Source of the DNA: Chrysomallon squamiferum
Lineage: Eukaryota; Animalia; Mollusca
Reading direction: 5' to 3'
Assembly: GCA_012295275.1 (NCBI GenBank)
Contig: CM022679.1
Coordinates: forward strand, 27,652,001-27,716,000
Length of the DNA stretch: 64,000 bases
Part shown: piece by piece, positions 8,458 to 26,341 of the stretch
How positions within the stretch are numbered: position 1 is the first letter of the stretch
How the letters are laid out: the number at the start of each line of letters is the position of its first letter
Translations under genes and position numbers: made by a program
The notes under the pieces: generated by a model
What the model was told of the DNA's origin: nothing
Database searches by the model: none
Seen by the model: only the letters and a program-made list of their open reading frames with translations

Positions 8458-10915
8458 ATGTCTGCACTGAAACTGAAAATCTTTCTCGTCTTGCTAATTT
8501 TGGGATCAGTGGAGGCCGGGTCAGCTGATGGATGGGAACCTTACAAACCACTGTAAGATTTATTTTAGCTGTCTTCCTATGTTAATCCAAATGTAAATTA
8601 TTTTATTTTGTAAGATTTATTTCTATTCTTGTTACTCAATAAATATCAGACGAGGTTGGAAAATTCAAAATAATTATAATTATTGATGATTCTGTGAAAT
8701 AGTGTTTCCTTCTAATCCAATAACAAAAAAGAATTAGAATTATTAAGAGTTGATCATTAGTTTATGTTTCTCTTTCTTTTTCTGTCTTTTTTTTTTTTTT
8801 TTTTCACAACTACAGCAACTTAGACCCACGTTGTCATTTTGCTAAATAGTACTGATATCAGTGTTCACTTTTCAGAAACAGAAGGAGTGCTCGTGGGTGA
8901 GTATCAATTTATCTAAAAAAGAAGTACACACATATACATACATACATACATGTATGTAGCAAACAGTACGAAAAACAATAATGATGATGATGATGATACT
9001 AACAGTACAGCCAAACCACTTACACCAGAAAGCCCACCACCATCATACAAAACAACATCATGAACAACGAAAATAATAATAATAATAATTGATGATTCTG
9101 ATGATGAATGTGATGATAATGATATTTGTGATGATGAATAGCGAAGAATGGTAATAATAAAAAATGTGATAATTATTTCATTGCTATATCTACTGAAAAG
9201 TAAAAAAAAAAAAAAAATATTATTTGTCTATGCTCCTCAGCTGGTAAGTATCAATTACAAGTAAGCATTTTAATTGTATTTACATGATTGCAAACAAATT
9301 CTAATATCACAATGAAAGAAGCAAATACACATCTGGCCTGTTATAAGTTTATGTGCTTTAAAATAAATATTTTTAAATGCATTTTGCACAGACTAACCAT
9401 GAGATGGATCCAAATTTATTTTTAAGTTCCGATACTTATTATTTGATTGATAATTGTTTCTCTTCAAAATATCAAACAAACAAACAGCCTGGCAAGTCTC
9501 ATTCTCTTAAATTGTAAAACAATTTAATTCAGCAGAAATATTATATATTGGGTCTTAGTTTTGTAAAACGTATCAGAAACCATTAAAACAAGTCTCTTTG
9601 ATATATTCGTAAGTTAATAGAGAGCACCCCACCTGGAAAAAGAACTGAATGGGGATTTCATGCAGTATGAACATAATGGCATTAAAACAGACGACATTGA
9701 TAAACAAATAAATTGTTAAAAAGGACCTCATTATATATGACAATGCTGATAATGCTGAATTCATTTTCTAACAAATGGACACTCAATCAGTTTATGCTTT
9801 TTAAACGTTCACACTTCTTTTCCTGCAAATGTATACTTTTTACTTCCCTGTATATGTGAAGCATATTTATCCTTATTAGTGTATTGATTAAGGACTTTTT
9901 TCTTTGATTGTTTGTCACTTTTATTCTTTGTTTTGCTATCTGATAATATATCAAAATAAAAGTAACACAATCAAAACATCTTTCTTTTATCTTTTTAAAA
10001 CAGGTCGAGAAGACATGCGTGAGTCCTATTCTCTTAAACTCTAAGACAAATTACATCAGCAGAAATATTAGATTGGGTCTTAGTTTTGTAATACGTATTA
10101 GATATTATTACACACACGTCTCACTGATATATTAATAACGTAATACGTACCCATGAATTTTGCCTCGGAACAAAACTTGAATGAGGACTTCATGTAGTAT
10201 GTTCATCATGACCTTAAAGCAGACGACATTAATTAAAAATAAACTGTTCATTTTGTGTGAAAATATTGATAATGCTCAATTCATTTTTCTAACTAATAGA
10301 CATTCCATCATTTTATAATATAAACACTCACACTTCTTTTGCTATAAACATATACAGGCTTCCTCCACTGTCTAAGTGAAGCATATTATCCTTATTAGTG
10401 TATAATTGATACAATATAAAGTCACTAATGTATAATACAGGTGGTATAATACAGACTATAACAAACTATATAATAATAATAATAATAATAATAATAATAA
10501 TAAAAAATAATAATAATAACCACAATAAAAATAATCATTATAATTATTAGAACATACACTGAATTTAAATTCAAACGGTAATTTGCCAATATTAGAGATA
10601 TCAGAGCTAAATAAGAAGAAGAAGAAGAAAGAGAAGAAGAGAACAAATAAATACCCTTAATAAACGACTGATCACAGAAGATGTTCCTAAGACAGCAGTT
10701 GAGATACATTCTTTATTTCAAAGACGATGTCAAAATGAAGAGAAAACTTCTAAACTGTTCATTATAAATATCAGTATAGAGGTCATCTAAAGCAAGATAA
10801 AATAAAAATGTCTCCGAAATGTGACTAAAATATAATCTATATTTTCAGGAAGCGATCTAACTCTAAGTTGAATGACTTCAGCAGTTTGTCTGACCTCTTC
10901 GGAAACAAGGAATAA
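8458..10915 (+). CDS. Micro-exon gene A: small secreted cationic peptide precursor (~66 aa), family unidentified
   Basis: Exons 8458-8552, 8876-8896 (21 nt), 9241-9243 (3 nt, least certain), 10004-10018 (15 nt) and 10849-10915. All introns are GT-AG and phase 2. Translation: MSALKLKIFLVLLILGSVEAGSADGWEPYKPLNRRSARGWSRRHAKRSNSKLNDFSSLSDLFGNKE*. The N-terminus is a classic signal peptide (basic n-region, hydrophobic core, small residues at -3/-1). AATAAA overlaps the stop and recurs at 11331. Confidence 0.7.
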
Positions 10916-23683: not shown

Positions 23684-26341
23684 TTATTCCTTGTTTCCAA
23701 AGAGGTCAGACAAACTGCTGAAGTCATTCAACTTAGAGGTAGATCGCTTCCTGAAAATAAAGATTATATTTTAGTCACATTTCGGAGACATTTTTATTTT
23801 ATCTTACTTTAGATGACCTCTATACTGATATTTATAATGAACAGTTTAGAATTTTTCTCTTCATTTTGACATCGTCTTTGAAATAAAGAATGTATCTCAA
23901 CTGCTGTCTTAGGAAAATCTTCTGTGATCAGTCATTTATTAAGGGTATTTATTTGTTCTCTTCTTCTCTTTCTTCTTCTTCTTCTTCTTATTTAGCAATA
24001 TCTCTAATATTGGCAAATTACCGTTTGAATTTAAATTCAATGTATGTTCTAATAATTATAATGATTATTTTTATTGTGGTTATTATTATTATTATTATTA
24101 TTATTATTATTATTATTATTATTATTACTATTATTATATAGTTTGTCATAGTCCGTATTATACCACCTGTAATATACATTAGTGACTTTATATTGTATCA
24201 ATTATACACTAATAAGGATAACATGCTTCACTTAGACAGTGTTTGTTTGTTTGATATTTTGAAGAGAAACAATTATCAATCAAATAATAAGTATCGGAAC
24301 TTAAAAATAAATTTGGATCCATCTCATCGTTAGTCTGTGCAAAATTCATTTAAAAATATTTATTTTAAAGCACATAAACTTATAATAGGCCAGATGTGTA
24401 TTTGCTTCTTTCATTGTGATATTAGAATTTGTTTGCAATCATGTAAATACAATTAAAATGCTTACTTGTAATTGATACTTACCAGCTGAGGAGCATAGAC
24501 AAATAATATTTTATTTTTTTTACATTTCAGTAGATATAGCAATGAAATAATTATCACATTTTTTATTATTACCATTCTTCGCTATTCATCATCACAAATA
24601 TCATTATCATCACATTCATCATCAGAATCATCAATTATTATTATTATTATTTTCGTTGTTCATGATGTTGTTTTGTATGATGGTGGTGGGCTTTCTGGTG
24701 TAAGTGGTTTGGCTGTACTGTTAGTATCATCATCATCATCATTATTGTTTTTCGTACTGTTTGCTACATACATGTATGTATGTATGTATATGTGTGTACT
24801 TCTTTTTTAGATAAATTGATACTCACCCACGACCACTCCTTCTGTTTCTGAAAAGTGAACACTGATATCAGTACTATTTAGTAAAATAACAACGTGGGTC
24901 TAAGTTGCTGTAGTTGTGGTAATAATAAAGACAGAAAAAGAAAGAGAAACATAAACTGAGTCTGTTTGTTTGTTTAATATTTTGAAGAGAAACAACAATT
25001 ATCAATCAAATAATAAGTATCGGAACTTAAAAATAAATTTGGATCCATCTCATGGTTAGTCTTCTCAAAATTCATTTAAAAATATTTATATTAAAGTGCA
25101 TAAAATTACAACAGGTCAGATGTGTATTTGTTACTTCAATTTTGATGTAAGAATTTGTTTGGTACTGTTGTAAATACAGTTAAGATCCCTACTGATAATT
25201 GACACATACCATTCTCTCAAGGGAACACATAAATAAAAATAAAAATCAATTTTTCAGCAGACATAATAATGAAATAATTATCACATTTCTTACTATTACC
25301 ATTCATCGCTGTACACATACTATTCATCAACACATATAATATTCATCGGAATCATCAATTATTTTTATTATTATTATTATTATTGTTGTTCTTGTTGTTG
25401 ATTATGTTGTTTTTTGTGTTGGCGGTTGCAGTTGTGGTGTAGGTGGTTTGGCTGTACTCACCTACGAATACTCTTTTTCAATCTGTAAAAGTGAACACTG
25501 ATATTAGTACAATTTAGTATTATCATCATTATTATCTTTGTTGTTTTAGCTGCTGTTTGCCACTCTCTCTCACACACACACTTCTGTGTGGAGATAAATT
25601 GATACACACAGATAAGCCCTACTTCTGTTTCTGAAAAGTGAACACTGATATGAGTACTATTTAGTAAAATAACAACGTGGGTCGAAGTTGCTGTAGTTGT
25701 GGAAGAAAACAAACAAAGACAGAAAAAGAAAGAGAAACATAAACTAATGATCAACTCTTAATAATTCTAATTCTTTGTTGTTATTGGATTAGAAGGAAAC
25801 ACTATTTCACAGAATCATCAATAATTATAATTATTTTTGTCGTTGTTCATGATGTTGTTTTGTATGATGGTGGTGGTCGTTCTGGTGCAAGTGGTTTGGC
25901 TGTACTGTTAGTATCATCATCATCATCATTATTGTTTTTGTAATGATAAATGATACTCACAGTGTGCTGAAACATGTGCAAAAAAGAAATATATATAATA
26001 ATATAATAAAGCGTTTTACACAAAATATGAATGGAATTAGTTCTTTCTCTATAACATATACTTGTAAATAACAGCGACCATAGGATATACAAAGAAACAT
26101 TTAAATAGTCTGAATCTGGAATCCTTCGTCTTGAATTTTCCAACCTCGTCTGATATTTATTGAGTAACAAGAACAGAAATAAATCTTACAAAATAAAATA
26201 ATTTACATTTGGATTCACATAGGAAGACAGCTAAAATGAATCTTACGGTTGATCGTAATGTTCCCATCCATCAGCTGACCCGGCCACCACTGATCCCAAA
26301 ATTAGTAAGACGAGAAACATTTTCAGTTTCAGTGCAGACAT
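23684..26341 (-). CDS. Micro-exon gene B: inverted paralog, small secreted cationic peptide precursor (up to ~77 aa)
   Basis: Exons 26341-26247, 25966-25961 (6 nt), 25630-25610 (21 nt, weak GTGTGT donor), 25482-25462 (21 nt), 24847-24827 (21 nt), 24485-24483 (3 nt) and 23750-23684. All are phase 2 and the joined frame is open: MSALKLKMFLVLLILGSVVAGSADGWEHYDQPTLNRSRAYLLKKSIRRNRRSGRGWKRSTSKLNDFSSLSDLFGNKE*. Confidence 0.65.

Follow-up and report, generated by a model that had tools for sequence, protein, structure and literature searches.

In the micro-exon genes (MEGs) of schistosomes, micro-exons form most of the coding region (PMC4350168), each gene carries 10 to 20 very short exons (bioRxiv 10.1101/2023.06.21.545858), and exon duplication and a high ratio of nonsynonymous to synonymous change (dN/dS) have been described (PMC8293314, PMC4350168). 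Myticalins and modiocalins are linear cationic antimicrobial peptides of mussels (PMC5577615, PMC12294457). We analyzed a window of 64,000 nucleotides (nt) from Chrysomallon squamiferum, known as the scaly-foot snail (GenBank assembly GCA_012295275.1, contig CM022679.1, positions 27,652,001 to 27,716,000), in which two genes, A and B, are predicted to join a signal-peptide exon to a series of micro-exons and a terminal exon opening with the residues KR. Their design is MEG-like in architecture and myticalin-like in precursor layout, and by the defining features of either group they belong to neither. All exons and junctions of A and B are predicted from genomic DNA, and on that basis the gene structure is very probably real.

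Predicted genes A and B and their closest counterparts

Gene A, on the forward strand, has coding exons of 95, 21, 3, 15, and 67 nt that encode 66 amino acids (aa). Gene B, on the reverse strand, has coding exons of 95, 6, 21, 21, 21, 3, and 67 nt and encodes 77 aa. The predicted exons are as follows, in window coordinates (UTR, untranslated region).

8179..8204, + strand: candidate 5' untranslated exon of A (weak), with a GTAAGA donor at its end
8443..8552, + strand: predicted first coding exon of A (coding 8458-8552), with 15 nt of UTR, a predicted signal peptide of 20-23 aa, the start of the mature region, and a phase-2 donor
8876..8896, + strand: predicted 21-nt micro-exon of A (whole codons NRRSAR)
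9241..9243, + strand: predicted 3-nt micro-exon of A
10004..10018, + strand: predicted 15-nt micro-exon of A, missing from B
10849..10915, + strand: predicted terminal coding exon of A, with KR, a 19-aa tail (net -1), and TAA
11288..11336, + strand: predicted, candidate 3' UTR exon closing gene A; AATAAA at 11331
26247..26356, - strand: first coding exon of B (coding 26341-26247)
25961..25966, - strand: predicted 6-nt micro-exon of B, missing from A
25610..25630, - strand: 21-nt micro-exon a of B (NRSRAY), a duplicated cassette with the weak, non-consensus donor GTGTGT
25462..25482, - strand: 21-nt micro-exon b of B (LKKSIR), a duplicated cassette
24827..24847, - strand: 21-nt micro-exon c of B (NRRSGR), counterpart of A 8876-8896
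24483..24485, - strand: predicted 3-nt micro-exon of B
23684..23750, - strand: terminal coding exon of B, differing from that of A at 2 of 67 nt

An earlier note on this DNA had proposed the coding exons and their junctions, and they were recovered, with open frames, when recomputed. Its 95-nt signal exon is the coding part of an exon that is really 110 nt long: the acceptor at 8441-8442 is followed by 15 nt of 5' UTR, which implies an untranslated exon upstream. Copies of the candidate for that exon lie at 26621-26596 (- strand) and 4349-4374. Every intron of both genes is in phase 2, and the micro-exons, 3 to 21 nt long, all have lengths divisible by 3. As the note had said, these symmetric units join without stops to the terminal exon; every possible set of skipped micro-exons leaves the frame without an internal stop (8/8 sets in A and 32/32 in B, 40/40 in total). 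The donor matches the full consensus GTRAGT at seven of the eight micro-exons, and an internal AG in the 21-nt exon of A (8876-8896) would yield a 15-nt form, also in frame.

The note had called the genes MEG-like. As the criterion for MEG membership we took a coding region lying mostly in symmetric exons of <=36 nt. Micro-exons contribute 39 of 198 coding nt (20%) in A and 72 of 231 (31%) in B and number three and five, respectively, which places the genes outside the group. What the loci share with MEGs is a predicted signal peptide, short symmetric micro-exons removable in frame, duplication of exons and genes, and rapid amino-acid change. Conversely, MEGs show exon skipping and are described as restricted to flatworms, whereas here the host is a mollusc and the precursors carry a KR site and a tail. 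No sequence similarity to MEGs was seen, in that no homologue of exon 1 emerged from the protein libraries, MEG sequences not having been compared directly.

With myticalins and modiocalins the genes share an untranslated first exon, a conserved signal sequence, a hypervariable Cys-free core, and membership in a multigene family with pseudogenes (PMC5577615, PMC12294457). Myticalins also resemble A and B in a core with an isoelectric point (pI) above 11 and more than 10% Arg, in a KR site after the core (cleavage here being predicted), and in a C-terminal extension. They differ in having three exons, the second of which encodes the entire mature peptide, and a phase-1 intron, whereas A and B have five and seven coding exons, with the core split over four to six of them and all introns in phase 2. 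The myticalin signal consensus is another one, as judged by eye, and the extension is anionic and 35-75 aa long, against a tail of 19 aa here. Molluscidins of oyster and abalone are likewise linear, basic, molluscan peptides with several dibasic motifs (PMC5577615); they are set apart, by their description, by a build of dibasic repeats, and the available account notes no micro-exon structure. In the wasp genus Nasonia, the antimicrobial-peptide genes nasonin-2, nasonin-6, and the nabaecins diversified through duplication or shuffling of same-phase exons (PMC2853521). Each of those exons is a whole defensin-sized domain, whereas a single micro-exon in A or B contributes 1-7 residues. The SCPP genes of vertebrates (caseins, statherin, histatins) also combine a signal exon with small same-phase exons that are duplicated and skipped, and histatins are cationic antimicrobial products. 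Unlike those of A and B, SCPP introns are in phase 0, and the genes belong to vertebrates and are not known to be related in sequence.

Protein searches used single-exon queries of 21-45 aa, and very short proteins are perhaps absent from the libraries. Exon 1 with its upstream in-frame bases matched nothing among 5.8 billion proteins in the length ranges 24-79 aa and 71-2000 aa, Pfam assigned no family to exon 1 of either gene or to two terminal exons, and the best ESM Atlas value, 0.84, was below the useful level, with nothing among the named clusters. Against 1.84 billion representatives, exon 1 of B had a single match (E 6e-5), to 18 residues inside a 757-aa protein of repetitive sequence, which we rejected. 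Two of 487 candidates from JGI metagenome contigs passed; with 60-64% guanine plus cytosine (GC) and no DNA similarity to the window, they were attributed to chance. Rfam had no match in window positions 1-31000. A literature search whose scope excluded bioRxiv supplements and most subscription papers found no description of such a family, and two short motifs did not occur in 12 of the 13 supplements of PMC7142155, one large text file excepted, a weak negative since the rows displayed came from annotation tables. The peptide family appears to be new and undescribed, in line with the note, which had not recognized it.

Splice motifs, cassettes, and sequence change

The micro-exon motif was scanned as YAG, 1-30 nt, and GTRAGT, with at least 11 pyrimidines among the 17 upstream positions. 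The sense strand of both gene bodies (4.8 kb) held seven matches, all with lengths that are multiples of 3, and their antisense strand held none. The remaining ~123 kb of strand had five matches, two of them multiples of 3. The rest of the window predicts 0.2 matches where 7 were observed, for a Poisson p of ~2e-9, a value that is overstated because the thresholds were set after the exons had been seen and because the seven matches go back to four independent origins. Pyrimidine thresholds of 10 and 12 gave the same picture. The excess of motifs in the gene bodies is far beyond chance.

Self-comparison showed that the micro-exons sit in intron-exon cassettes that have been duplicated and deleted at the DNA level. 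Gene B holds the 21-nt cassette three times and the 3-nt cassette twice, and gene A holds the 15-nt cassette twice; the 6-nt cassette and two of the 21-nt ones are missing from A, and the 15-nt cassette is missing from B. Self-matches within B span 65-499 nt at 78-95% identity, each containing or flanking a micro-exon, and the intron downstream of the 6-nt exon matches its counterpart in the 21-nt cassette at 95%. Two cassette copies have decayed.

9488..9491, + strand: decayed copy of the 15-nt cassette, in which AG and a GC donor enclose 4 nt; frameshift if used
25210..25215, - strand: decayed copy of the 3-nt cassette, with a GAG acceptor, 6 nt, and a GTATGT donor; stop before exon c (hand-read)

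The downstream intron of the first is 74% like that of the 15-nt exon. Both copies, which would break the frame or create a stop, carry degraded splice sites.

A deep DNA run, X1, covers the gene A region (29 of 30 bins). The loss of the 15-nt exon in B is an 881-nt deletion, and its joint is also present in X1. This run contains the B junctions 8667-8668 and 9484-10366 and the exon-1 letters of B, with at least three exon-1 types in all. At a loose end at 10028 (two contigs), AG, 15 nt, and GTAAGT were read by eye where the 15-nt exon of A sits; the whole codons of this variant give YRTG, against SRRH in A, and 7 of 15 letters are shared (by eye). The 15-nt exon has kept its length and splice sites and changed its content. 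X1 is possibly the source of the assembly and so offers no independent proof of the arrangement. No RNA run was listed as containing this stretch, and three metatranscriptome runs compared with gene A gave short simple-repeat matches only; both results are uninformative on expression.

Among the four 21-nt exons, the exon had diverged more than the intron adjacent to it upstream in five of six pairwise comparisons (p 5e-5 to 0.03): 7/21 versus 2/70 (p 0.0004), 6/21 versus 4/70 (p 0.009), 13/21 versus 4/39 (p 5e-5), 8/21 versus 5/39 (p 0.03), and 8/21 versus 4/39 (p 0.014). In exon 1, the mature part differs between the genes at 5 of 26 positions, against 23 of 574 in the flanks (p 0.005), and the signal part at 3 of 69. 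All differing whole codons of the mature region change the amino acid. In neutral or non-coding DNA, one would not expect change to cluster between splice sites that stay fixed, so these patterns are good indirect evidence that the micro-exons are translated exons under diversifying selection. Several points pull the other way. The recent pair, the exon of A and exon c of B, shows no excess (1/21 versus 2/70, p 0.55), and the six comparisons share sequences, so they lack independence. Across the 3.5-kb arm, >=5 mismatches per 26 nt occur in four places: the exon-1 hotspot, two microsatellite edges, and one stretch of unique non-coding DNA. As 21% of single changes are synonymous, finding none in ~12 codon differences has a p of only ~0.06. 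Intron flanks near acceptors are constrained, and gene conversion may homogenize them.

Paralogs, repeats, and surroundings

The window is AT-rich animal DNA with abundant simple repeats. Self-comparison revealed a large inverted duplication whose arms, 4983-11474 and 23161-29841, face each other; each carries one gene, making A and B inverted, convergent paralogs. The arms differ by 2.7% and by whole cassettes. Further family-related features are listed below.

388..466, + strand: predicted terminal coding exon (beginning IIGKRS) of paralog C, a third and diverged copy; the 5' part of C precedes the window
838..882, + strand: predicted final exon of C; AATAAA at 877; further copy at ~4830-4875
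2451..4405, + strand: diverged copy of the upstream region of A without a coding exon behind it (emptied repeat unit)
11447..23312, no strand: three ~4.26-kb tandem units that separate the 3' ends of A and B, 98% alike and each partly palindromic
15079..15145, + strand: orphan terminal-exon copy, differing from A at 4 of 67 nt in three codons, all amino-acid changing
19334..19400, + strand: second orphan terminal-exon copy, its translation identical to that at 15079
10938, 15168, 19423, 23661 (- strand), and 503: GTACGT candidate donors

Genes and exons alike are subject to birth-and-death turnover. The decayed copies, cassette repeats, orphan exons, paralog C, and emptied unit, as well as the GTGTGT donor at 25630-25610, go beyond the earlier note. 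The GTACGT donor lies 23 nt past the stop codon (37 nt in paralog C) in every terminal-exon copy, near enough that a 3' UTR intron is not expected to trigger nonsense-mediated decay. In paralog C, the Gly before KR is a possible amidation signal. Its terminal exon also has an internal GTAAGT donor after 437, missing in A and B, so that the tail would have either three Cys (unspliced) or none (spliced to 838).

Each tandem unit contains an inverted repeat of 1.2-1.4 kb, ~86-88% alike (11331-14792, 15728-19047, and 19980-23312). These repeats derive from the 3' flank, and a read-through transcript could therefore fold back. Beyond the inverted duplication, an isolated C-terminal fragment of a scavenger-receptor cysteine-rich (SRCR) domain lies at 30738-30580 (- strand; Pfam E 1.4e-6, profile positions 66-97 of 100). 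Within 30964-33050, a gap of 200 N (30964-31163) leads into a TAACCC array with 161 exact units, which grades into TGACCC variants (92) and then a 42-nt satellite. The gap and array look like a chromosome end inside the scaffold, either a mis-join or an end-to-end fusion; GC content is similar on either side (26.9% and 30.5%). A rhodopsin-family 7-transmembrane receptor, RYamide-receptor-like, occurs in two pieces on the - strand (41415-40666 and 36039-35620), with best matches at 78% in Gigantopelta aegis, 71% in Haliotis, and 58% in Patella, which indicates a gastropod close to the peltospirid vent snails and other than G. aegis. The gap and telomere-type array separate it from the peptide genes, so the two are perhaps not neighbors. 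Satellite arrays occupy 33059-35060 (period 42), 58152-59147 (29), 60279-60782 (21), and 45196-45725 (23 nt), and the long open reading frames across the 42-nt array look like by-products.

Predicted products and their possible roles

At its start, the predicted signal peptide is basic, with two Lys, and it has a strongly hydrophobic 9-mer with a Kyte-Doolittle value of 3.1-3.4 and small residues at -3/-1; the predicted cut falls after residue 20 or 23. The segment between it and KR would be 22 aa with net charge +4 in A and 33 aa with net +6 in B, and it lacks Cys in both, agreeing with the charges and composition given in the note. These cores have pI values of 11.44 and 11.31 and contain 23% and 21% Arg, respectively. 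The note had described them as Arg/Trp-rich, which is apt for Arg; there are two Trp in each. Its statement that most micro-exons carry RR or KK proved wrong, as only four of eight do. Micro-exons make up 59% of the mature core in A and 73% in B.

We see roughly even chances that this is a young, duplicated, lineage-specific family of secreted Arg-rich precursors whose released cationic segment would serve as a host-defence peptide against microbes. This reading draws on the myticalin-type layout and on rapid amino-acid change, which in short secreted cationic peptides is typical of host-microbe conflict. The DNA displays exon-like units, their phases, open frames, cassette duplication and loss, and an excess of exon change. 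From there, transcripts would be spliced as drawn, the signal peptide would be removed after residue 20 or 23, and a convertase would cleave at the terminal-exon KR, as proposed for myticalins. The resulting peptide of 22-33 aa (pI 11.3-11.4, 21-23% Arg, few hydrophobic residues) would bind anionic microbial surfaces, and action inside the cell or by surface binding seems more likely than pore formation. Unequal recombination between repeated intron segments would add or remove whole modules in frame, because all introns are in phase 2 and all micro-exons are multiples of 3; selection would then diverge the modules. Exon skipping could add variants and is not needed for what the DNA shows.

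Several features count against host defence. With grand average of hydropathy values of -1.9 and -1.7 and 27% hydrophobic residues, the cores are very hydrophilic, and peptides of this kind lyse membranes poorly in salt water. Cleavage at internal RR/KK sites could break the cores into pieces of 1-19 aa, the short tail (net -1) is far from the long anionic extension of myticalins, and rapid change marks reproductive proteins as well. Given the low hydrophobicity, the internal dibasic sites, and a tail that is weakly acidic, roles in reproduction or signalling and structural roles stay in contention.

It is possible, though doubtful, that skipping of micro-exons is the main diversifier, a MEG-like splice library of up to 8 and 32 peptides that would be compatible with host defence. 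The uniform phase 2, lengths in multiples of 3, 40/40 open combinations, one weak donor, and the in-frame internal acceptor in 21-nt exons all suit it, as do the exon duplication and high dN/dS reported for MEGs (PMC8293314, PMC4350168). Symmetry, however, is automatic when a cassette duplicates inside one phase-2 intron and is no proof of skipping; the seven full-consensus donors favor inclusion, and there are only three to five micro-exons. A reproductive or signalling precursor (seminal, egg-coat, pheromone, or neuropeptide-like and cut at every dibasic site) is rather unlikely. The signal peptide with several dibasic sites, Gly-Lys-Arg in paralog C, and the rapid change would fit, but a repeated conserved motif is missing, neither A nor B has Gly before KR, and cuts at all dibasic sites would leave pieces of 1, 2, 5, and 6 aa. 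Neuropeptides, moreover, are usually conserved, and a Pfam match would be expected, where exon 1 and the terminal exons gave none.

An adhesive or structural secretion, as in mucus, periostracum, or the matrix of shell or scales, whose basic low-complexity peptides would bind polyanions or mineral, strikes us as very unlikely. The product is predicted to be secreted, disordered, and basic, and taxon-specific genes are somewhat commoner in mineralizing tissue of the scaly-foot snail (PMC7142155); set against this are the very short product, the processing site, and an excess of amino-acid-changing differences instead of compositional conservation. A dead locus of pseudogenes, or one that is in part an artefact of assembly with haplotypes joined head to head, is highly improbable, for all the near-identical tandem and palindromic units, orphan exons, emptied unit, and nearby scaffold gap that recommend it. 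Both frames are intact across five and seven exons, the arms differ by 2.7% plus whole cassettes, and X1, compared over the gene A region, contains A-type, B-type, and further forms. The note had also named venom; we set this aside as unlikely, since the host, a peltospirid-type snail, is not a predator.

Legumes and aphids control their symbionts with Cys-rich peptides. A bolder form of the host-defence reading, which we regard as quite unlikely, is an independent micro-exon system in a chemosymbiotic vent snail, whose combinatorial Arg-rich library, built by genomic cassette shuffling plus transcript skipping, would select or control bacterial symbionts. The word "antimicrobial" does not occur in the main-text passages searched of two peltospirid genome papers, so an effector family for microbe control would be new in these snails. 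If expressed, the family would be one that is invisible to gene finders and open-reading-frame scans, and it would place a MEG-style architecture outside flatworms, joined to an antimicrobial-peptide precursor layout. The locus would then also provide a clear DNA record of modules of one to seven residues being born, swapped, and lost in frame.

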